From Escherichia phage ECP2304: 63,590 nt of DNA. The stretch lies in sequence record OR880647.1; one strand, given 5' to 3'. Positions 997 through 63,590 of this stretch are shown piece by piece. The notes beneath the pieces were generated by a model. The model was given only the letters and a program-made list of their open reading frames with translations, ran no database searches and was not told the DNA's origin. The stretch's first letter is position 1. Every line of letters begins with the position of its first letter. A program made the position numbers and the translations under genes.

Positions 997-1146
997 CTAT
1001 AACGCTGCAAACATAAGCAGACGAATATTAACTGAAGTTTGGCTATTAAAGTCTTGACATTCTTTGATAATCTCTTCTTCACTTTTACCACTAAGTTTAG
1101 AATATTCTGTGATTGCTTGTTTTAATACAGAATCAAAATTGTTCAT
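997..1146 (-). CDS. small hypothetical protein (49 aa)
   Basis: ATG at 1144-1146 preceded by AAGGAGG RBS; translated by hand to TAG at 997-999. Confidence 0.45.
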   Translation of the reverse strand: MNNFDSVLKQAITEYSKLSGKSEEEIIKECQDFNSQTSVNIRLLMFAAL

Positions 1147-1156
1147 TTTATCCTCC

Positions 1157-1771
1157 TTATGCGTCCAGACCGTTGTATTTGCGCCAGGCGTAGAACTGAA
1201 TGGCGACAGTTGTTCCGTTGTAAGAAGGCATTGCAGCTTTCATCTCTTTCAGCGCCGGCGTGCGGCCCAGTTCCTTCAGAAGCTTGTCACCCATTGCCCA
1301 CACTTCGGCAGTTTTTCCTTTAAGGGGCTTGCGAGCGCCATTTTTGAAATCGCAGCGAGCAGCTTTTGCATCCTGTTTTGGAGCGGCAGCTTTTGGCTCT
1401 TCAATTTTGATTTCAGAAACCTGCGTGGCAGCTTTTGCGTGTTTCATATCTTTCTCTTCCTCCTGCTCCAAAGCTTTGAGGCAGCTTTTGACGATTTCCG
1501 GATTTACCATCGGGCGCAGTACCGAGGCGCTAGCAGCTGGAGCGGCGGTCGGTGCTGGGGCTTTCTGCTCCGGCTTTTGAGCTTTTTCGTGATCGCGCAG
1601 CACCTGAAGGACTTCCTTTTCGACGATGTAAAAACCGATATCGTCCTGATGGATAAGCTGTTCGTGTGCGTCGCGTGCAACCTGGCCCCAGCGAGTTTTC
1701 AGAGCGCGGCGTGCATTCGTTTTCATGGTGTAGCGCATTTTGTCCTGTTCGCGGTGAGTTACTTTAGACAT
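1157..1771 (-). CDS. hypothetical protein (204 aa), basic N-terminus and Ala/Pro-rich linker
   Basis: ATG at 1769-1771 preceded by AAAGGAG RBS; in-frame with track ORF 1157..1816. Confidence 0.6.
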   Translation of the reverse strand: MSKVTHREQDKMRYTMKTNARRALKTRWGQVARDAHEQLIHQDDIGFYIVEKEVLQVLRDHEKAQKPEQKAPAPTAAPAASASVLRPMVNPEIVKSCLKALEQEEEKDMKHAKAATQVSEIKIEEPKAAAPKQDAKAARCDFKNGARKPLKGKTAEVWAMGDKLLKELGRTPALKEMKAAMPSYNGTTVAIQFYAWRKYNGLDA

Positions 1772-1844
1772 GGTATAGCTCCTTTCGTTAATGTTAGTTT
1801 GCTTATTACTGCCCACCGTAATGATGAGCAGTGTATAAGAAAAC

Positions 1845-2093
1845 TTACTGCACGATTGCTACGAAATCGGCGGTTGCGATATCCATGCTTGCAAACGCTT
1901 TGACGGTGTAGCTGGTATCTGCCGCGGCGTTGAAGTCGCTCAGGAACTGTTGTACCGCGTGCTCATGGTTGAGCATTACGTCTACATTGCAGTCCCAGCT
2001 ATAAACCTTGCGCTGACCGAAACCTTTAACTGCAATACGCGCGCCTTTGGTGTTGGTTGGTGCCAAAAATTTGGTGACGATAGAAGTAGCCAT
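1845..2093 (-). CDS. hypothetical protein (82 aa)
   Basis: ATG with GAGGA RBS. Confidence 0.55.
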   Translation of the reverse strand: MATSIVTKFLAPTNTKGARIAVKGFGQRKVYSWDCNVDVMLNHEHAVQQFLSDFNAAADTSYTVKAFASMDIATADFVAIVQ

Positions 2094-2166
2094 GATGTAA
2101 TCCTCGTTTTGTTTAAGTTGACTTATTATTGCCCAGTCAGATCAACTAGGCAAGATATAAATCAGC

Positions 2167-2391
2167 TTATTTAACCATCAAGGCCCATCTTTTATAGCCG
2201 TTCAGCTCCATTCTATGACCGTGGTCGTTGCAGTAACGTTGGATATTATTAAAGTCGTTATCGTTCATATCGCTGACGTCAATATTAAAATAGTTGCGCT
2301 TTGCAGGTGTAACGTATTGGGATAACTGCATTGAGTACAGATGTTCAATGTTGTCGATAATAGCTTGCTGAACTTTAGTGATAGTAGCCAT
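2167..2391 (-). CDS. hypothetical protein (74 aa)
   Basis: Internal ATG at 2389-2391 preceded by GGAGGTG RBS; track ORF extends to 2451. Confidence 0.5.
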   Translation of the reverse strand: MATITKVQQAIIDNIEHLYSMQLSQYVTPAKRNYFNIDVSDMNDNDFNNIQRYCNDHGHRMELNGYKRWALMVK

Positions 2392-2781
2392 GATACACCT
2401 CCTAATGTGGTTAAGCAGTATTGCTTTGTTGAAGTAATAATAGCCTTGCATCGTGATATTGAATAGGCCAAACGTGCTATTTTGATATTGTTTTGCATCT
2501 AGTGAAAATCATGCTTGTATCGCATATTTAGCACTAATGGCCTAACTAACATCACACGATCTGGTCTACGCGCGTGCATACATACATATAAGGAGTGCCG
2601 GACAGGATCGGACCGACCAGGGGCGCTCAACCGTCTCTGTCCGTCCTGTAAGCTGGTCCCCGGACTGGTCCAAAATATTTTTATAAAAAGATGCAAAAAG
2701 GTGTAGACATATGATCAATCTAACCCTACTATATACACATACCGCAAGGGTACTACAAATTAACTTAAAGGGGTTTACATC

Positions 2782-2985
2782 ATGTCTATTCGTAGCGTTA
2801 TCTGTGTAATGGTTGCAAACAATAATTTTGGTTTCGTAGAAGGTGCAGAGTATAAAATGGATCTTAAGACTCGTTGCATTATTAAAGGTGAAGAGGAATG
2901 GCGTGCAGTGGTAGAAGATCGCGGCGATATCTACATCTATAGTTCTGATACAATGAAAACTATTGCCGTCTTCGAATTTAACTAA
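2782..2985 (+). CDS. hypothetical protein (67 aa)
   Basis: ATG with AAAGGGG RBS; first plus-strand gene after divergent intergenic region. Confidence 0.55.
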   Translation: MSIRSVICVMVANNNFGFVEGAEYKMDLKTRCIIKGEEEWRAVVEDRGDIYIYSSDTMKTIAVFEFN

Positions 2986-3053
2986 GCTAACTTATACAAT
3001 GGGCATTAGTACAGTGCCCATTAATAAGCTAACTAATTATAACGAGGTGTATT

Positions 3054-3239
3054 ATGTCTACGAACACTGTGAAGTCTGTAAATAATAGCAACAGAACATT
3101 TAAAGTTATCTATTATGGCGAATATATTGGAGACGTTACAGCTCCCAGCCGCATCGCTGCGGAAGACTTCGTCCGTACAGAGATGGAGCTTGGAATCGCC
3201 GATTTTGCAGCCATTATCGAACTGGTAGAGGTATTCTGA
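3054..3239 (+). CDS. hypothetical protein (61 aa)
   Basis: ATG with GAGGTG RBS. Confidence 0.5.
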   Translation: MSTNTVKSVNNSNRTFKVIYYGEYIGDVTAPSRIAAEDFVRTEMELGIADFAAIIELVEVF

Positions 3240-3240
3240 T

Positions 3241-3381
3241 ATGCAACGCAAATACACGCTTACACGCGCACAGCACGCGTTATTGATTGCAGCTATGCGC
3301 GCAGAATATGCAGTACACGGCTGGCATAGCGCCATGATGCGAGGTAAAAGCATATATGCAGACATATGCTCGCAAGAATAA
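3241..3381 (+). CDS. small hypothetical protein (46 aa)
   Basis: TGAtATG coupling to upstream gene; hand-translated to TAA at 3379-3381. Confidence 0.35.
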   Translation: MQRKYTLTRAQHALLIAAMRAEYAVHGWHSAMMRGKSIYADICSQE

Positions 3382-3944
3382 CGCACACAGCAGCACCACA
3401 GCGAGCTAAAGCTCAAAGGTAATGGTAATGCATTACCAACACACAATAAGCACGCTGTACCCAGCAAAGCGGCGCTAATTTCAACACTCACAGGCTGTAC
3501 GTTAACGCGTACGGCCTGCTCTGCTATATGCACGCCATGTATATAGCCAGCTCACAATGCACATCAATATAATTACGAATGAAATGGATTCGTCTGGAAG
3601 AATAACAATTCTTACAGTCACAGACCGGTCCAATGAGCCAACTCATAGACCCCACCTAGGATCATCAGGGTACTAATAATCACCCGAGGGCCCTTATCCA
3701 TCCTGATAGTAAGTGCTTGCCTAAATCTTACCCATCACTTTACTATCCACATACATCCATGACCCCACCTACCTTCTTTTTGAATATATTGCGCTCATCC
3801 TTTCTAAATATATGGATTTTGGTAGTAAATTCTGAGTCGTCAACGTATAATCCGTCTTGTAGCTGCCCCATAGCTACCATCTTTAAGCGGATGCAACCAA
3901 TTTCTATCAATTCTCACCAGTTTTAGAGCATCAAGGAGGTATTT

Positions 3945-54021: not shown

Positions 54022-54489
54022 TTATTGAATTGAACCGCGATCAATTAACCATTGTTTCGCGTGCGCTTTAAAAATAATGCGATAGTCATCAAGACTAATC
54101 TCCGCGCGGATGGAATCTTTAACTTCGTACCACTGCCACTCGCCATTGCTAAAGACAACTGGATTGAGTGGTAGAACAACCTTCCATCCTTTACGTTCTA
54201 TTTTATACATTAGAACTGGATATCTGCCAAGCTCTTTAGCGGATTGAACAGTCTGCTTCCACCATGTGTTCACCTGTGGCGTAGCATGGTTTTTTACTTC
54301 AACTGCATGGTGGCATGTATTGCTAATGTCGCAACCACCGACCGCACTTTGATTCTGGTTACGCTGAGCAATAGGTTTTTCCGGTAACTGCATCCCCAGC
54401 TCTGCGTAAATTTCGGCATAAATTGCATTAAAGAAATCACATACTTCCCGCTCACCGCGTTGACCTTTAGCGCGAATATTTACTGCCAT
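54022..54489 (-). CDS. putative PD-(D/E)xK Holliday-junction resolvase-like nuclease
   Basis: GQRGERE...GGCDI...EVKN pattern (Hjc-like); ATG 54487-54489 after GGAG. Confidence 0.4.
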   Translation of the reverse strand: MAVNIRAKGQRGEREVCDFFNAIYAEIYAELGMQLPEKPIAQRNQNQSAVGGCDISNTCHHAVEVKNHATPQVNTWWKQTVQSAKELGRYPVLMYKIERKGWKVVLPLNPVVFSNGEWQWYEVKDSIRAEISLDDYRIIFKAHAKQWLIDRGSIQ

Positions 54490-54529
54490 GTTTGTCTCCA
54501 TAACTTTAATGTAAAACACTTCATAAAGA

Positions 54530-54558
54530 ATTTTATATTGAAGTTATGTTGATTGCAA
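54530..54558 (-). promoter_or_regulatory. sigma70-like promoter for gene 54022..54489
   Basis: Minus strand TTGCAA, 17-nt spacer, TAAAAT. Confidence 0.35.
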
Positions 54559-54560
54559 GG

Positions 54561-54594
54561 AACAAAAAAGCCCAGGCATAAGGATTCCTGGGCT
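54561..54594 (-). terminator. rho-independent terminator (minus strand)
   Basis: Minus strand AGCCCAGG-AATCCTTATG-CCTGGGCT followed by TTTTTTGTT. Confidence 0.65.
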
Positions 54595-54868
54595 CTCTTG
54601 ATTGTCAGATAGCTTACTTTGACTGCCGTCTTCGTCTATCCTGGCCTACTTGTACAGCCTCGCCAAAGGCTGGTGACGGTTTGGTACATCTGGCGCCGTC
54701 TCGTTAAACATCGTTTACATCGTTCAGTAAGTTGCGGGTTTATCCTGTCCGCTCCAGGAAGCCCAGCGAAAGTAGTTGCTGTAAGGAGGTACAGCTACCG
54801 CTTTCAAGGGCTTGAGTTAAGCATCGTTCACTAAGTTAATGTTGTTAAATTGTTAAACCTCGTTAACT
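54595..54868 (-). ncRNA. candidate small non-coding RNA
   Basis: About 270 nt without credible ORF, bracketed by minus-strand promoter and terminator. Confidence 0.3.
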
Positions 54869-54874
54869 GTGGTT

Positions 54875-54903
54875 ATCTTAAAGGATGCAATCCTGAACGT
54901 CAA
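54875..54903 (-). promoter_or_regulatory. sigma70-like promoter (minus strand) with palindromic spacer
   Basis: Minus strand TTGACG, 17-nt spacer containing AGGATtgcATCCT, TAAGAT. Confidence 0.4.
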
Positions 54904-54906
54904 GCT

Positions 54907-55224
54907 TCAATTTTGCGCGGTTCCCTTTGCCGCTTTTGGTGCTAAAGTACCATCATTTAACATCAACTCAAAACCTGTTACTTGATCGGTTGGAACAATA
55001 GGGTAATTCATGATAGCTATGTGGATACAACACCCTCCATCACATTCGTCGATGTATTCACTACCCCAATAGTATAAATGACCATCTCTTCGAATATCCA
55101 TTGCTGTAGGGAAATCTACAAGAATTCTTTTGATTTCTTTTCGTCCTTCTTTATGCAGATTAGTTTCAATACGGATAAGCTCCGCATAAATTGCTTCACA
55201 GATAGTATTTACAATTCCCATCAT
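54907..55224 (-). CDS. hypothetical protein (105 aa)
   Basis: Clean ORF. Confidence 0.5.
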   Translation of the reverse strand: MMGIVNTICEAIYAELIRIETNLHKEGRKEIKRILVDFPTAMDIRRDGHLYYWGSEYIDECDGGCCIHIAIMNYPIVPTDQVTGFELMLNDGTLAPKAAKGTAQN

Positions 55225-55659: not shown

Positions 55660-55884
55660 ATGGTCATGCTGAATAAAGTATATAGCACAATGGGCGCGGA
55701 TTATAAAGTTGTACGTCACCCGCGTACTGGTAAATTTGAAGCATACATCCGTCCAATGGGTGAAGGTTGGATGTATTACGGTACTTATGATGACGCTGAG
55801 AAAGCTTATGAAGAAGCGGAAAGTGCGGCGGAAGCATCCGAAATTATGGCAAGGTACGACGTCGACGATTACTATTTCAACTAA
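55660..55884 (+). CDS. hypothetical acidic protein (74 aa), plus-strand island
   Basis: GGAGGA RBS; own promoter and terminator; sole plus-strand gene in minus-strand arm. Confidence 0.6.
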   Translation: MVMLNKVYSTMGADYKVVRHPRTGKFEAYIRPMGEGWMYYGTYDDAEKAYEEAESAAEASEIMARYDVDDYYFN

Positions 55885-55888
55885 CAAT

Positions 55889-55910
55889 AAAGGGCCGAAA
55901 GGCCCTTTAT
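55889..55910. terminator. bidirectional terminator
   Basis: AAAGGGCC-GAAA-GGCCCTTT flanked by A and T runs. Confidence 0.65.
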
Positions 55911-58247
55911 TTATTTGCTTAAGTCCTTGAAAACACTCTCAATTGACTCGTCTATATACCATCCCAATCCCCTGAAATTACGCTTCAACGCATCTTCACG
56001 CGTGACTGGAACGAGCGCACCCATGTCTACAAGTTGCTTGATGGTAAGGTCTGTTGCAGTACCTGCTCCCATCCTGTGATTCTTGAATGCTGCTAGACCG
56101 TAGGTTCTGCGTGTGATAGTTGCCTTTGGAATAATACCGTCAACGCGCAGCTCCTTACGATCACATGCAATCTTACCGCCAAGATAGTCTTTGCAGACCT
56201 GACAGATAGCCTTCACACGTGTTTCGTCATCACCGCCAATAGTACCTTTTTCCCATGCGTTGATCATAATGTCCTGACCGTGCGTAACAAAATCTACCGC
56301 CCATTGCATGTGGTTTGGTTGCACCACAGGATTGATCCAGTTTTCCCCCACCGCTAACAGAGAAGCAAGACGCAAAGCTTTAAGGTGTGCACGGTTCCAA
56401 GGCTGACGGATTGCTTCGTCTTTGGTTGCGTTAATGTGTTCGTCACATAACAGGTTAAACTCCCGTTCAATCCTTTCAGCTTCAGGACTTAACTGGACTG
56501 TGACAGTTTGAAACTTCGCCATTGTTACTAAGGTGTGGTTAACAAGATGGCACACCATGTCCTTTAACTGCTGGGGCATTATAATCTCAGGGTTTTCGTT
56601 TGCAGGAACTCGATCTCCTTCATATTGCACAATGTGGAAACGGGACAAGAAACCGTCTTCCATCATTTCACGGGTTAATGCTTCAAAGAAAGTGTCCGGT
56701 GTTGTTTCTCCCAGCACGCTGAACGCTACCCCTTCCATCGTTTTGGTATTATTAGCCTTATCAGAATATCCAATACCGCCAACAACATCCATTGCGCCAG
56801 ATTTTTGATATACATCTGTGATAGTTTGCTTCAGAGTATAGTTTGCAGTACCGGGCTGAGCTGTTGCCATACCTTTGATGGTTTTGCCAAACTCTCCGTT
56901 AATGTTCACAAACGAACTATGATCCGCAAAACTTTTACGCAATGCAGGACCGGACGCATAGTTAGTCATGTCTACAAATTCATGAACTTGCGGTAATTGC
57001 TCCCCTACTTGCTTGCAAATATAGCTGGGTCCGGCGTGAAGCATCTCTTTACCCACACCTGAGCGAGCGATAAGCACAAAGTAACCGTTCAGCCCTGTGT
57101 TGGTGATAGTATTCCATACCTTACCGCACACACCAGACAGAAATGCTAACGATGCGGTGATTGCAATTTCTTTCACGGGACGTTGCGATGCTTTGTAGAT
57201 GTACTTCGCAAGCTCCCCAGCAAGCCCCGGCGGCCACTCAATAGCGGTTGCATCAATAGACGTACTTTCTGCAACTACTATTTGACCGGAAGGACTAACT
57301 GTGGTTACAGGCATCTCTGTTACTTGCTGCATTGTGCTGTGTGCGGCTTGCATACGGGCAGCATAATCTCGCGCCAGCGCCGCTACGTTTTCCTGGGCAA
57401 TGCGCTCACGCTCCATGCGACCGCGGCACATCCGCAAACAACGGTCAATATGAACATTGTTCTTATTAGCCTTCTCACGTTTGCCCAGTGCACTGTAACG
57501 GAACAGACGGCGACATTGCTCATTACTTTCTGTATAGAATGCATACATAGAAATAAGAGCAAGGTCTGCTTCAGACTGGGAAGGGAATCCCATTTCAACC
57601 CATTCACCATTGAATAGGCGTGCATACTTATCCCCGTTGTCCGCTTCAAGCGCGCGCTGGTGAATAGTTGCATCGTCTTCTACCGGATCTTTTTCTACCA
57701 GTTCAATTTCATATGTCTTGCGCTGAAGATCAATTTCATTCACAAGCATAGTAAGATAATGATCGCGTTCGGCAACTGGTTTGTTATAGACAGGATTACC
57801 CGTGCAGATAATAAAACGCTCCTGACTATAAACTTCGACACCATCACGTCGACGACCTTTGCCGATGTTTCCTCTTAACCACAGGTGAACACCCAAGCCT
57901 GAGCGACTTACTTCGGTGTAAGTATCGAACGCGGTCATGATCTGTTCGAAGCGGCGCAACTGTTCCGGCGTCGTGTGCTTCTTGGGATCTGGTTCATTGG
58001 TTGCGTTCTTTACATCCAGGTCGATGCAGGTGAACGGGTCTTGTGCAGTAAGCACGAAGCCTATATAAGGTTTGTTGAAATGAGCAGCACAACCTTTGGC
58101 AGCTTCAAACGTCATAAGCATATCCGGATCGGTAACGTCCGCTGCCATCAAACGTCCGATATCGTTGTCCCATATTAATGGGCGTTTATCTTCACCAGCA
58201 ATAGCCCACTGATTGTATTGTTTAATTTCATCAGGAAATAATTTCAT
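55911..58247 (-). CDS. DNA primase-helicase (PrimPol-like N-terminus, SF3/D5-like helicase C-terminus)
   Basis: 778 aa; acidic DxD-type motif TCIDLDV, GVHLW; Walker A ARSGVGKE; ATG at 58245-58247. Confidence 0.6.
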   Translation of the reverse strand: MKLFPDEIKQYNQWAIAGEDKRPLIWDNDIGRLMAADVTDPDMLMTFEAAKGCAAHFNKPYIGFVLTAQDPFTCIDLDVKNATNEPDPKKHTTPEQLRRFEQIMTAFDTYTEVSRSGLGVHLWLRGNIGKGRRRDGVEVYSQERFIICTGNPVYNKPVAERDHYLTMLVNEIDLQRKTYEIELVEKDPVEDDATIHQRALEADNGDKYARLFNGEWVEMGFPSQSEADLALISMYAFYTESNEQCRRLFRYSALGKREKANKNNVHIDRCLRMCRGRMERERIAQENVAALARDYAARMQAAHSTMQQVTEMPVTTVSPSGQIVVAESTSIDATAIEWPPGLAGELAKYIYKASQRPVKEIAITASLAFLSGVCGKVWNTITNTGLNGYFVLIARSGVGKEMLHAGPSYICKQVGEQLPQVHEFVDMTNYASGPALRKSFADHSSFVNINGEFGKTIKGMATAQPGTANYTLKQTITDVYQKSGAMDVVGGIGYSDKANNTKTMEGVAFSVLGETTPDTFFEALTREMMEDGFLSRFHIVQYEGDRVPANENPEIIMPQQLKDMVCHLVNHTLVTMAKFQTVTVQLSPEAERIEREFNLLCDEHINATKDEAIRQPWNRAHLKALRLASLLAVGENWINPVVQPNHMQWAVDFVTHGQDIMINAWEKGTIGGDDETRVKAICQVCKDYLGGKIACDRKELRVDGIIPKATITRRTYGLAAFKNHRMGAGTATDLTIKQLVDMGALVPVTREDALKRNFRGLGWYIDESIESVFKDLSK

Positions 58248-58248
58248 C

Positions 58249-58773
58249 TTATACACCCAATTTGTTACAACCGTGGTTCTTGTGAAAATTGTAATCGGTT
58301 AATGCTTTACTTACAGCCATTTGTGCATCTTCAAAAGTATCGTATACTCCAAGATATTTTGAAGTCCCGTCGACGCCTATACGAGCTTGCCATTTATTAG
58401 TACCTTTGTGAAATGTAACTCCATTTACTCCAGAGGTATTATTGCGTTTCTTACTTTGATTTCGTCCATTTTCTTTGTGAGTAACAAGACGCAAGTTTTC
58501 AATGCGGTCGTCGTAACGAATGTGATTAATATGGTCTATTTCCATACCTTCCGGTATTGGACCATTATGCATTTCCCATACTATGCGTGAACGGCGATAT
58601 AGTTTGCCTTTAAGAGCAATACGAACATATCCTTTATCCGTAAGCGTACCTGCAACGCAACCTTCTTTCGCTCTTGCGCCCATATCTTTCTTCCAATACA
58701 ACACTCCTTCATTATATTGGAATATTACCGCCCATTGTGGGAAAGCTTTAATTTCAGCGGGAAACAGTTCCAT
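58249..58773 (-). CDS. HNH homing endonuclease with AP2 DNA-binding domain
   Basis: HNH motif EIDHINHIRYDDRIENLRLVTHKEN; AP2-like SGVNGVTFHKGTNKWQARI. Confidence 0.7.
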   Translation of the reverse strand: MELFPAEIKAFPQWAVIFQYNEGVLYWKKDMGARAKEGCVAGTLTDKGYVRIALKGKLYRRSRIVWEMHNGPIPEGMEIDHINHIRYDDRIENLRLVTHKENGRNQSKKRNNTSGVNGVTFHKGTNKWQARIGVDGTSKYLGVYDTFEDAQMAVSKALTDYNFHKNHGCNKLGV

Positions 58774-60891: not shown

Positions 60892-61041
60892 CTATAACGC
60901 TGCAAACATAAGCAGACGAATATTAACTGAAGTTTGGCTATTAAAGTCTTGACATTCTTTGATAATCTCTTCTTCACTTTTACCACTAAGTTTAGAATAT
61001 TCTGTGATTGCTTGTTTTAATACAGAATCAAAATTGTTCAT
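60892..61041 (-). CDS. small hypothetical protein (repeat copy of 997..1146)
   Basis: Identical duplicate. Confidence 0.45.
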   Translation of the reverse strand: MNNFDSVLKQAITEYSKLSGKSEEEIIKECQDFNSQTSVNIRLLMFAAL

Positions 61042-61051
61042 TTTATCCTCC

Positions 61052-61666
61052 TTATGCGTCCAGACCGTTGTATTTGCGCCAGGCGTAGAACTGAATGGCG
61101 ACAGTTGTTCCGTTGTAAGAAGGCATTGCAGCTTTCATCTCTTTCAGCGCCGGCGTGCGGCCCAGTTCCTTCAGAAGCTTGTCACCCATTGCCCACACTT
61201 CGGCAGTTTTTCCTTTAAGGGGCTTGCGAGCGCCATTTTTGAAATCGCAGCGAGCAGCTTTTGCATCCTGTTTTGGAGCGGCAGCTTTTGGCTCTTCAAT
61301 TTTGATTTCAGAAACCTGCGTGGCAGCTTTTGCGTGTTTCATATCTTTCTCTTCCTCCTGCTCCAAAGCTTTGAGGCAGCTTTTGACGATTTCCGGATTT
61401 ACCATCGGGCGCAGTACCGAGGCGCTAGCAGCTGGAGCGGCGGTCGGTGCTGGGGCTTTCTGCTCCGGCTTTTGAGCTTTTTCGTGATCGCGCAGCACCT
61501 GAAGGACTTCCTTTTCGACGATGTAAAAACCGATATCGTCCTGATGGATAAGCTGTTCGTGTGCGTCGCGTGCAACCTGGCCCCAGCGAGTTTTCAGAGC
61601 GCGGCGTGCATTCGTTTTCATGGTGTAGCGCATTTTGTCCTGTTCGCGGTGAGTTACTTTAGACAT
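61052..61666 (-). CDS. hypothetical protein (repeat copy of 1157..1771)
   Basis: Identical duplicate. Confidence 0.6.
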   Translation of the reverse strand: MSKVTHREQDKMRYTMKTNARRALKTRWGQVARDAHEQLIHQDDIGFYIVEKEVLQVLRDHEKAQKPEQKAPAPTAAPAASASVLRPMVNPEIVKSCLKALEQEEEKDMKHAKAATQVSEIKIEEPKAAAPKQDAKAARCDFKNGARKPLKGKTAEVWAMGDKLLKELGRTPALKEMKAAMPSYNGTTVAIQFYAWRKYNGLDA

Positions 61667-61739
61667 GGTATAGCTCCTTTCGTTAATGTTAGTTTGCTTA
61701 TTACTGCCCACCGTAATGATGAGCAGTGTATAAGAAAAC

Positions 61740-61988
61740 TTACTGCACGATTGCTACGAAATCGGCGGTTGCGATATCCATGCTTGCAAACGCTTTGACG
61801 GTGTAGCTGGTATCTGCCGCGGCGTTGAAGTCGCTCAGGAACTGTTGTACCGCGTGCTCATGGTTGAGCATTACGTCTACATTGCAGTCCCAGCTATAAA
61901 CCTTGCGCTGACCGAAACCTTTAACTGCAATACGCGCGCCTTTGGTGTTGGTTGGTGCCAAAAATTTGGTGACGATAGAAGTAGCCAT
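61740..61988 (-). CDS. hypothetical protein (repeat copy of 1845..2093)
   Basis: Identical duplicate. Confidence 0.55.
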   Translation of the reverse strand: MATSIVTKFLAPTNTKGARIAVKGFGQRKVYSWDCNVDVMLNHEHAVQQFLSDFNAAADTSYTVKAFASMDIATADFVAIVQ

Positions 61989-62061
61989 GATGTAATCCTC
62001 GTTTTGTTTAAGTTGACTTATTATTGCCCAGTCAGATCAACTAGGCAAGATATAAATCAGC

Positions 62062-62286
62062 TTATTTAACCATCAAGGCCCATCTTTTATAGCCGTTCAG
62101 CTCCATTCTATGACCGTGGTCGTTGCAGTAACGTTGGATATTATTAAAGTCGTTATCGTTCATATCGCTGACGTCAATATTAAAATAGTTGCGCTTTGCA
62201 GGTGTAACGTATTGGGATAACTGCATTGAGTACAGATGTTCAATGTTGTCGATAATAGCTTGCTGAACTTTAGTGATAGTAGCCAT
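62062..62286 (-). CDS. hypothetical protein (repeat copy of 2167..2391)
   Basis: Identical duplicate. Confidence 0.5.
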   Translation of the reverse strand: MATITKVQQAIIDNIEHLYSMQLSQYVTPAKRNYFNIDVSDMNDNDFNNIQRYCNDHGHRMELNGYKRWALMVK

Positions 62287-62676
62287 GATACACCTCCTAA
62301 TGTGGTTAAGCAGTATTGCTTTGTTGAAGTAATAATAGCCTTGCATCGTGATATTGAATAGGCCAAACGTGCTATTTTGATATTGTTTTGCATCTAGTGA
62401 AAATCATGCTTGTATCGCATATTTAGCACTAATGGCCTAACTAACATCACACGATCTGGTCTACGCGCGTGCATACATACATATAAGGAGTGCCGGACAG
62501 GATCGGACCGACCAGGGGCGCTCAACCGTCTCTGTCCGTCCTGTAAGCTGGTCCCCGGACTGGTCCAAAATATTTTTATAAAAAGATGCAAAAAGGTGTA
62601 GACATATGATCAATCTAACCCTACTATATACACATACCGCAAGGGTACTACAAATTAACTTAAAGGGGTTTACATC

Positions 62677-62880
62677 ATGTCTATTCGTAGCGTTATCTGT
62701 GTAATGGTTGCAAACAATAATTTTGGTTTCGTAGAAGGTGCAGAGTATAAAATGGATCTTAAGACTCGTTGCATTATTAAAGGTGAAGAGGAATGGCGTG
62801 CAGTGGTAGAAGATCGCGGCGATATCTACATCTATAGTTCTGATACAATGAAAACTATTGCCGTCTTCGAATTTAACTAA
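62677..62880 (+). CDS. hypothetical protein (repeat copy of 2782..2985)
   Basis: Identical duplicate. Confidence 0.55.
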   Translation: MSIRSVICVMVANNNFGFVEGAEYKMDLKTRCIIKGEEEWRAVVEDRGDIYIYSSDTMKTIAVFEFN

Positions 62881-62948
62881 GCTAACTTATACAATGGGCA
62901 TTAGTACAGTGCCCATTAATAAGCTAACTAATTATAACGAGGTGTATT

Positions 62949-63134
62949 ATGTCTACGAACACTGTGAAGTCTGTAAATAATAGCAACAGAACATTTAAAG
63001 TTATCTATTATGGCGAATATATTGGAGACGTTACAGCTCCCAGCCGCATCGCTGCGGAAGACTTCGTCCGTACAGAGATGGAGCTTGGAATCGCCGATTT
63101 TGCAGCCATTATCGAACTGGTAGAGGTATTCTGA
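62949..63134 (+). CDS. hypothetical protein (repeat copy of 3054..3239)
   Basis: Identical duplicate. Confidence 0.5.
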   Translation: MSTNTVKSVNNSNRTFKVIYYGEYIGDVTAPSRIAAEDFVRTEMELGIADFAAIIELVEVF

Positions 63135-63135
63135 T

Positions 63136-63276
63136 ATGCAACGCAAATACACGCTTACACGCGCACAGCACGCGTTATTGATTGCAGCTATGCGCGCAGA
63201 ATATGCAGTACACGGCTGGCATAGCGCCATGATGCGAGGTAAAAGCATATATGCAGACATATGCTCGCAAGAATAA
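63136..63276 (+). CDS. small hypothetical protein (repeat copy of 3241..3381)
   Basis: Identical duplicate. Confidence 0.35.
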   Translation: MQRKYTLTRAQHALLIAAMRAEYAVHGWHSAMMRGKSIYADICSQE

Positions 63277-63590
63277 CGCACACAGCAGCACCACAGCGAG
63301 CTAAAGCTCAAAGGTAATGGTAATGCATTACCAACACACAATAAGCACGCTGTACCCAGCAAAGCGGCGCTAATTTCAACACTCACAGGCTGTACGTTAA
63401 CGCGTACGGCCTGCTCTGCTATATGCACGCCATGTATATAGCCAGCTCACAATGCACATCAATATAATTACGAATGAAATGGATTCGTCTGGAAGAATAA
63501 CAATTCTTACAGTCACAGACCGGTCCAATGAGCCAACTCATAGACCCCACCTAGGATCATCAGGGTACTAATAATCACCCGAGGGCCCTT

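Follow-up and report, generated by a model that had tools for sequence, protein, structure and literature searches.

In the genome of Escherichia phage ECP2304 (sequence record OR880647.1), the interval that separates a promoter from an intrinsic terminator on the minus strand is, in our judgement, very probably an RNA gene. In what follows, the window designates the whole stretch of DNA that was analysed, that is, 63,590 nucleotides (nt). By the BLAST matches of the locus, the window is assigned to the genus Seuratvirus (Queuovirinae), together with CAjan, Seurat, the SLUR phages and the BASEL phages KurtStettler, WildeMaa and VogelGryff. The locus is situated in the minus-strand early and replication arm, inside the replication/recombination module, and its borders and neighbours are as follows:

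54907..55224, minus strand: gene directly upstream of the locus, with its stop codon TGA at 54909-54907
54903-54898, minus strand: -35 element TTGACG (TTGCCA in most relatives, TTGACA in Salmonella phage STP-SP5)
54880-54875, minus strand: -10 element TAAGAT, after a 17-nt spacer (TAATAT in STP-SP5)
54564..54868, minus strand: predicted noncoding transcript of about 305 nt, with its start inferred 7 nt past the -10 element and its end at the U-run
54564..54600, minus strand: intrinsic terminator, an 8-bp G+C-rich stem lengthened by A/U pairs and followed by U6
54558-54530, minus strand: downstream promoter TTGCAA-17-TAAAAT, which serves the PDDEXK nuclease gene and is present in all relatives
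54022..54492, minus strand: PDDEXK nuclease gene, downstream of the locus, with a dUTPase gene next
55911..58256: NrS-1-like primase-polymerase/helicase gene, separated from the RNA locus by two small genes of unknown function

The form TTGCCA-17-TAAGAT of the upstream promoter was found at the loci of about 20 relatives, and in STP-SP5 the promoter (TTGACA-17-TAATAT) matches 11 of the 12 consensus positions, which is closer to the consensus than the promoter of the window. It is because of this conservation, and not of its match score, that the promoter is credible. The palindrome AGGATtgcATCCT, to which the preliminary description of the locus had drawn attention in the promoter spacer, is effectively present, in this window only. 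The relatives have AAGACTGCATCC at this place, so that the palindrome is not a conserved operator and was rejected as a candidate for this role.

At the other end of the interval, the terminator is composed of AGCCCAGG (54594-54587), a 10-nt loop, CCTGGGCT (54576-54569) and a T run extending to 54564. Its predicted fold has a stability of -21.8 kcal/mol (z = -5.05), which was equalled by none of 200 shuffled sequences. The terminator escaped our scan because its loop is longer than the 8-nt maximum of that scan. About 281 nt separate the -10 element from the terminator stem. The strong minus-strand terminator announced in the preliminary description was confirmed. The same applies to the promoter proper to the next gene. 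As this downstream promoter is separate, the RNA forms its own transcription unit.

In the lineage of OddieOddie, VogelGryff, Dru_SM1 and L019, the 3' third of the locus has diverged and an HNH gene comes next. In these phages, a different strong hairpin followed by a U-run (-17.9 kcal/mol) and, right after it, a new promoter were found in the same places. Since the signals are kept across lineages, even when the terminator sequence has been replaced, it was concluded that selection maintains the layout of start, stop and restart. Judging from these signals, the locus would be transcribed.

Next, the coding capacity of the interval was considered. The preliminary description had seen no credible open reading frame (ORF) on the sense strand, and this was found to be correct: the longest ones encode 27 (with a TTG start) and 21 amino acids. 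The longest ORF overall is antisense (71 amino acids, 54619..54834, plus strand) and appears, with a length of 53-71 amino acids, as a "hypothetical protein" in the GenBank records of KS_A3, KurtStettler, WildeMaa and VogelGryff. In relative L007 only 35 amino acids of this ORF remain, in slur01 it carries a frameshift, and STP-SP5 has it in another frame; the annotation is therefore probably spurious. The sense ORF of 21 amino acids switches frame mid-way in STP-SP5, where blocks with an otherwise unchanged nucleotide sequence contain indels of 1, 2, 3 and 8 nt. On either strand, no ORF frame survives the indels of the relatives. On the plus strand, no start codon stands at a proper spacing from TAAGGAGGT. 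Elsewhere in the genome, an exact TAAGGAGGT occurs only once, as the ribosome-binding site of a cysteine-rich ORF of 67 amino acids (32587..32804, plus strand), the last gene of the plus-strand arm.

The interval was recovered in about 34 phage records, that is, in essentially every record with a Seuratvirus-type primase, and most of the homologues are 95-99% identical to it, the identity being 97-99% for about 30 relatives. When slur01 was compared with the window, the RNA was 98% identical, as against 68% (nucleotide) and 57% (protein) for the adjacent upstream gene, the identity falling sharply exactly at the boundary of this gene. For STP-SP5, the RNA reached 80% and the PDDEXK gene 84%, as against 58% (nucleotide) and 43% (protein) for the upstream gene. 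In conservation, the interval thus equals the best of the neighbouring coding genes and greatly surpasses the upstream gene. Furthermore, the primases fall into two classes (at least 97% and 76% amino-acid identity) and the RNA is about 97% identical in both. The RNA locus is among the best-conserved stretches of the Seuratvirus early/replication region. Its presence in the related phages, with the signals kept, agrees with the proposal made in the preliminary description.

BLAST of the RNA against E. coli genomes gave no match. Pattern scans of IMG/VR and of metagenomes returned only near-identical Seuratvirus contigs, in addition to three chance matches from IMG/VR (L009-L011) that do not fit model R1. 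A two-loop pattern scan of the GTDB genomes gave chance matches only; among those inspected, two lay in rmlA-type coding sequence and one in an ORF-like stretch of a Nitrospirota contig. Finally, neither nhmmer nor a search with a covariance model built on the 3' half detected anything in Providencia phage PSTCR7, Nonagvirus, Nipunavirus, Klebsiella phage Kpn2-P2 and the IMG/VR loci L031-L042. As far as it can be detected, the RNA family appears limited to Seuratvirus.

Within the predicted transcript, the following elements were distinguished, given here in the 5' to 3' order of the RNA:

54814..54868, minus strand: A/U-rich 5' leader with UUAAC repeats, whose predicted hairpin is lost in STP-SP5
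54731..54838, minus strand: module 1, with a AACUUAGUGAACGAUG linker, a long hairpin and a small hairpin with the loop ACAGGAUAAAC
54759..54813, minus strand: long 21-bp hairpin with six covarying pairs
54734..54752, minus strand: hairpin GCGG/CCGC with the 11-nt loop ACAGGAUAAAC; GUGG/CCAC in STP-SP5, that is, one compensatory pair
54618..54734, minus strand: module 2, a diverged tandem copy of module 1 in which the end motifs are kept, AACUUACUGAACGAUG ... GGCCAGGAUAGAC
54709..54726, minus strand: two tandem 9-nt units, TGAACGATG and TAAACGATG, with a further exact copy at 54822-54830
54675..54700, minus strand: hairpin GACGG/CCGUC with the 16-nt loop CGCCAGAUGUACCAAA, invariant in all homologues
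54655..54672, minus strand: hairpin CAGCCUU-UGGC-GAGGCUG, with one-sided changes only, giving G.U pairs
54607..54641, minus strand: 3' hairpin GGAUAG...CUAUCU with the inner stem GAC/GUC and five covarying pairs

The minimum free energy of the minus-strand RNA is -94.3 kcal/mol (z = -3.6), the z value of the plus strand being -2.6. Covariation was analysed on a set of 12 distinct sequences by RNAalifold and explicit pair counting. In this set, 98.6% of the cells are paired, and 12 base pairs are changed on both sides, as compared with 3.8 +/- 1.4 in column shuffles and 1-3 in slid controls. RNA folding had been put forward in the preliminary description as a way to examine the locus, and both the z value and the doubly changed pairs spoke for a structured RNA. 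The compensatory changes are found in four hairpins. The long hairpins of the window and of STP-SP5, when folded alone, adopt the same shape with a CCUCC(U) loop. In the 3' hairpin, the covariation originates from the OddieOddie/VogelGryff/Dru_SM1 lineage and from PLYYY01, in which an independent swap of GAC/GUC to GUC/GAC is observed. Among the one-sided changes in mostly Watson-Crick pairs, G.U was counted 11 times and A.C 4 times. This bias favours a minus-strand transcript, with the caveat that the structure itself was predicted on the minus strand. As the leader hairpin is lost in STP-SP5, the leader is probably single-stranded. A CCA-ended minihelix following GACGG/CCGUC was dropped, as it is also lost in STP-SP5.

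The modular organization corresponds to diverged direct repeats with a period of 104-105 nt (repeat families D4, D6 and D7). Alignment of the two modules revealed a common 5' AACUUAnUGAACGAUG and a common 3' G-N-M-C-W-GGAUA-R-AC, the hairpins between them being different. In the metagenomic Seuratvirus contig L022 (61 kb; ERZ1026901 NODE-154), an extra module of about 100 nt (1138..1245) is inserted between modules 1 and 2; it possesses its own long hairpin and a CUGU-ACUGGAUAAAC-ACAG hairpin, and gave no BLAST match in the phage collection. Similarly, Dru_SM1 contains three tandem UGAACGAUG units versus two in the window. The exact 9-mer TGAACGATG and the exact 10-mer GTTTAACGAG occur nowhere else in the genome, and several shorter motifs exceed their expected counts at the locus (TTAAC, 6 versus 0.65; AACGATG, 3 versus 0.03; CAGGA, 3 versus 0.47). 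In the RNA, the repeated motifs UUAAC, AACGAUG and CAGGAUA count among the invariant elements. The motif UGUAC, present in three copies, was dropped because it is not conserved in STP-SP5.

The apical loop of the long hairpin, CCUCCU (54784-54789), is included in ACCUCCUUA at 54782-54790; the loop is invariant and its stem covaries. CCUCCU is the core of the 16S anti-Shine-Dalgarno (anti-SD) sequence, and ACCUCCUUA is identical to the last nine bases of the E. coli 16S rRNA. When targets of this loop were looked for within the phage genome, only one ordinary strong Shine-Dalgarno (SD) sequence was found, at 32587.

Taken as a whole, the locus is best explained, in our opinion and with moderate confidence, as a stand-alone, structured and modular RNA gene of about 305 nt whose product would act in trans in multivalent binding or as a decoy. 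The preliminary description had proposed a small RNA. The RNA part of this proposal is supported by the conserved signals, the conservation of the interval, the covariation and the absence of a coding frame; with its modules and its length, the RNA is larger than a typical small RNA (sRNA). Host sigma-70 RNA polymerase, assumed here because no Seuratvirus polymerase gene was seen, would start the RNA about 7 nt past TAAGAT and end it at the intrinsic terminator. The RNA would then comprise the A/U-rich 5' leader, the two diverged modules of about 105 nt and the terminator hairpin; the linker of each module includes UGAACGAUG, and a hairpin domain and a motif of the CAGGAUA type complete the module.

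The repeated short motifs, the invariant loops and the variable module number suggest an RNA with a role in multivalent binding or as a decoy. As a trans-acting multivalent platform, decoy or sponge, it may offer its repeated motifs in single-stranded form, together with the invariant loops, to a factor of the host or of the phage. In module 1, the CCUCCU loop might form pairs with SD sequences, by which it would compete with 30S subunits. A mechanism of either kind, decoy or SD pairing, is put forward tentatively and is more doubtful than the existence of the gene. We consider unlikely the more elaborate version in which the RNA would be an abundant modular decoy, its CCUCCU loop copying the anti-SD sequence and titrating mRNAs with strong SD sequences, or baiting either a factor of the host or a defence nuclease with a specificity for the 16S 3' end. 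In this version, the other modules would bind further host factors, and modules would be swapped, duplicated or added from strain to strain in the course of the co-evolution of host and phage.

The RNA was compared with known classes. Rfam 15 gave no match at the gathering threshold over the whole window. At the locus, only four weak matches were obtained with E<=10, the best being Thr_leader (18 bits versus a cut-off of 55), which is restricted to the terminator. The covariance-model search suggested with the preliminary description was thus carried out and linked the RNA to no Rfam family. ARAGORN detected neither tRNA nor transfer-messenger RNA in the window or in L004, L022 and L025. The RNA belongs to no described RNA family; it is an unannotated family of a familiar general kind, that of phage-encoded noncoding RNAs. 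In common with stand-alone sRNA genes in general, it has its own conserved promoter and terminator, no conserved frame and a structure with compensatory changes.

As in the sponge RNAs CsrB and RsmZ, hairpins are arranged in a modular array whose copy number varies between relatives, and the sequence CAGGAUA, close to the CsrB repeat CAGGAUG, stands in an 11-nt hairpin loop. CsrB contains about 18-22 GGA motifs. A function as a CsrA sponge was rejected, since GGA motifs are not enriched, and no Rfam match to CsrB or Rsm was obtained at the locus. S. aureus RNAIII and RsaE/RoxS are multi-hairpin regulatory RNAs whose C-rich loops pair with SD sequences. The phage RNA resembles them by its several independent hairpins, its own promoter, its intrinsic terminator and a C/U-rich apical loop, CCUCCU, which is the perfect complement of AGGAGG. 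Unlike them, it has a single loop of this type and comes from a lytic coliphage; it has no sequence or Rfam relation to them, and its predicted SD pairing involves a statistically unremarkable match. Bacteriophage T4 encodes the stable RNAs C and D (species 1 and 2), small RNAs of unknown function from its tRNA region. The present RNA is likewise a stable-looking structured RNA of a lytic phage, and in the related phage L041 a tRNA gene is found in the same slot. In contrast to the T4 RNAs, it belongs to a window devoid of tRNA genes and forms an independent promoter-to-terminator unit that is not processed from a tRNA precursor.

As with HK022 put and lambda nut, a structured RNA directly follows a host-type phage promoter and precedes a terminator; unlike these sites, it is about four times longer, lacks boxA, is followed by a separate promoter and varies in module number. 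No rrn or lambda boxA was found at the locus within 3 mismatches. A ToxI-like array was not found either: there are no tandem repeats of 34-45 nt (TRF reported only an 8-nt unit in two copies), and the flanking proteins are the PDDEXK nuclease and unknown proteins, not ToxN. Local alignment with 16S, 23S and 5S rRNA and with the 3' 150 nt of 16S rRNA, in both senses, remained within the shuffle distribution. rRNA mimicry or antisense pairing is therefore at chance level and was rejected. The iteron-type origin of P4 (ori/crr) contains 120-bp direct repeats with short iterons. The locus shares with such origins direct repeats of about 105 bp with short repeated motifs and the proximity of a primase-helicase gene; it differs from them by its hairpin covariation, its strand-biased wobble pairs and its conserved terminator.

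A resemblance to the CRISPR system was also considered. Racr and Cracr are RNA anti-CRISPRs or viral CRISPR-like RNAs (PMC10651486, bioRxiv 10.1101/2024.10.29.618823). Like them, the locus is a small phage noncoding unit with a rho-independent terminator at its end, and it shows a 9-nt identity, GGAUAAACC, to the I-E 5' handle region; unlike them, it has no repeat hairpin, and its modules have a period of about 105 nt instead of 61 nt. A local 17-nt match to the E. coli I-E repeat, AGCGG..GGAUAAACC, was reached by 6 of 1000 shuffles (p ~0.006), and a second repeat-like block lies 60 nt downstream. The full-length semiglobal score with the I-E repeat is 7, and about 15 other separate genome sites are equal or better among the sites listed. 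The Cas6e stem CCCCGC/GCGGGG is not present at the locus, modules 2 and X have no significant similarity to the I-E repeat, and no similarity to the I-F repeat was found. A mimic of the I-E CRISPR repeat was rejected on the full-length statistics and the missing Cas6e stem.

Among the other explanations, the main one is a site acting at the level of DNA, either a replication origin or a cluster of protein-binding sites, consisting of the iteron-like TGAACGATG and TTAAC repeats, the direct repeats of about 105 bp and an A+T-rich stretch. In this case, transcriptional activation or an RNA primer would come from the promoter, as in the origins of T4 or T7. We regard this as quite unlikely. It would account for the location of the locus, which the NrS-1-like primase-polymerase/helicase gene precedes by about 1 kb, for the strong over-representation of short motifs with exact copies of TGAACGATG and GTTTAACGAG restricted to the locus, for the copy-number changes in Dru_SM1 and L022, and for the A+T-richness of the first 55 nt or so. 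It does not account for hairpins maintained by compensatory changes, for an excess of G.U over A.C that favours one transcribed strand, or for a terminator function retained despite a replaced sequence; moreover, the 9-mer exists in three copies only, irregularly spaced, and the GC skew just tracks the direction of transcription and marks no origin here. The RNA might instead act in cis as a leader, through put- or nut-like antitermination or as an attenuator of read-through into the PDDEXK nuclease, dUTPase and replication genes. We consider this improbable. The order of promoter, long structured RNA, terminator and same-strand genes speaks for it, and alternative pairings around CGCCA, CCAAA and UUUGGCG can be seen by eye. 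A conserved promoter, however, directly follows the terminator in every lineage, and the downstream gene varies (PDDEXK nuclease, 100-amino-acid ORF or HNH endonuclease). Besides the missing boxA, no leader or riboswitch of Rfam matches the locus, and a variable number of modules is hard to fit with a precise polymerase-modifying fold.

A comparably small probability was given to an anti-defence RNA, that is, a decoy of an immune nuclease, a CRISPR-repeat mimic of the Racr/Cracr type or a pseudo-antitoxin, whose modules would be turned over in an arms race. The hypervariable accessory stretch with its small ORFs and HNH genes, the variation of module number and 3' third among close relatives, the local I-E similarity and the published precedent (PMC10651486, bioRxiv 10.1101/2024.10.29.618823) are in line with it. 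In the opposite direction, the full-length repeat similarity is ordinary, the Cas6e hairpin is absent, half of the relatives read GGGUAAAC, and neither a significant similarity of modules 2 and X to the repeat, nor tandem repeats of 34-45 nt, nor a toxin gene nearby could be found. That the interval is a non-functional spacer, identical among phages through recent ancestry or through gene conversion driven by the neighbouring homing endonucleases, appears very improbable. HNH genes do adjoin the locus in several relatives and most homologues are nearly identical, but STP-SP5 retains long invariant blocks and the signals and compensates its stem changes, and the identity of slur01 drops exactly at the upstream gene boundary. 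The least credible explanation is a small protein, either the antisense one of 53-71 amino acids or a sense peptide of 21-27 amino acids. The ORFs exist in the window and the antisense one is annotated in several GenBank records; against this stand the broken antisense frame in L007, slur01 and STP-SP5, the sense 21-amino-acid frame that is not kept, the indels of STP-SP5 in nucleotide-conserved blocks and the lack of a properly spaced start codon for TAAGGAGGT.

To come back to the trans-acting modular RNA, several observations weigh against it. The upstream promoter, presented as near-consensus in the preliminary description, lies where it had been placed, past the stop codon of gene 54907..55224, and is conserved; its bare match is 9/12, and in a scan of 6 kb 10 promoter-like sites were found versus 12.3 expected, which taken alone is the chance level. 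The literature on Seuratvirus or Queuovirinae transcriptomes and sRNAs yielded nothing relevant. The covariation is thin: three of the eight helices never vary, and invariant helices are uninformative in this respect; the hairpin of the 5' leader and that of the 9-nt repeats show no compensatory change; and the changes come from few independent lineages (STP-SP5, the OddieOddie group, PLYYY01 and L007), so that the structure is well supported and not proven. The 9-nt anti-SD identity is not above chance, 83 of 300 shuffles being as good, and the anti-SD loop is found in module 1 only. Unlike in CsrB, there are 5 GGA in 305 nt, for 4.3-5.0 expected. Lastly, repeated short motifs with copy-number variation beside replication genes also fit protein-binding sites at the DNA level.

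The equivalent slot was then inspected in more distant phages. In Providencia phages PSTCR7 and PSTCR4, whose primase is 49% identical to that of the window, an unannotated gap of 640 bp lies between a small reverse ORF and the PDDEXK gene. This gap (unit at L025 10655..11055 in PSTCR7) contains TTGCGT-17-TATATT and a unit of about 360 nt (z = -5.9) with no ORF above 39 amino acids; at its end there is a terminator made of a hairpin and U8, and a promoter comes next. The PSTCR7 unit has only AACUUAGUGAAC and a hairpin loop with CUCC in common with the Seurat RNA, the rest being not alignable. In L041 (IMGVR_UViG_2974607408_000001, 1700..2495), the same slot is occupied by 750 nt of noncoding DNA that include a tRNA-Ser(GCU) gene (2197-2284); upstream of this gene, a TTGCAA-17-TATATT promoter and then about 470 nt without annotation were found, and a weak, sub-threshold match to Rfam STnc100 was noted (E = 0.036). 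No equivalent was found at the slot in Nonagvirus HdK1, Nipunavirus NP1 and Klebsiella phage Kpn2-P2. A hairpin of the type AAGAC...AUAGU, recognized by eye, is common to Seurat, PSTCR7 and L041. As this likeness lacks statistical support, the RNAs of PSTCR7 and L041 were taken as positional analogues only. These results suggest a conserved RNA-gene slot which has been overlooked by annotation pipelines.

Some features of the neighbourhood were observed in addition. The product of gene 54022..54492 (minus strand) is designated as a "RusA-like" Holliday junction resolvase in the annotation of the relatives; its Pfam match is not RusA but PDDEXK_15 (phage putative PDDEXK endonuclease). An imperfect inverted repeat of 23 nt (54499..54548) covers the -10 element of the downstream promoter and the ribosome-binding site of this gene, and could be a regulatory hairpin. 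In the window, an HNH homing-endonuclease gene (58249..58773, minus strand) follows the primase gene. The position of the HNH gene varies with the relative (L001, L012 and L013): it stands after the PDDEXK gene in KS_A3 and directly after the RNA in VogelGryff and Dru_SM1. The mosaicism that surrounds the RNA may be due to such scattered genes. Between the converging primase gene and small plus-strand ORF 55660..55884 stands a perfect hairpin of 11 bp, AATAAAGGGCC-GAAA-GGCCCTTTATT (55886..55911); it looks like a bidirectional terminator and is annotated as such in the Seurat record. Finally, the window exceeds one genome length: ORFs 1064..1903 and 3033..3533 are repeated 59,895 bases further on, the ORFs of 1064..3533 being found again at 60959..63428, so that about 3.7 kb are present twice, by terminal redundancy or as a circularly permuted assembly.

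The Seuratviruses (CAjan, Seurat and the BASEL phages KurtStettler, GottfriedDienst, SeppeHuegi, WildeMaa and VogelGryff) are widely used model phages. In the Seuratvirus records examined, no noncoding RNA is annotated; at the RNA locus they show either nothing or, wrongly, a hypothetical protein in antisense, and the present finding corrects these annotations. The natural two- and three-module variants make the promoter-to-terminator RNA a clean experimental target. This RNA could show how a structured RNA is turned by a lytic phage against the translation, the RNA-binding proteins or the defence systems of its host.

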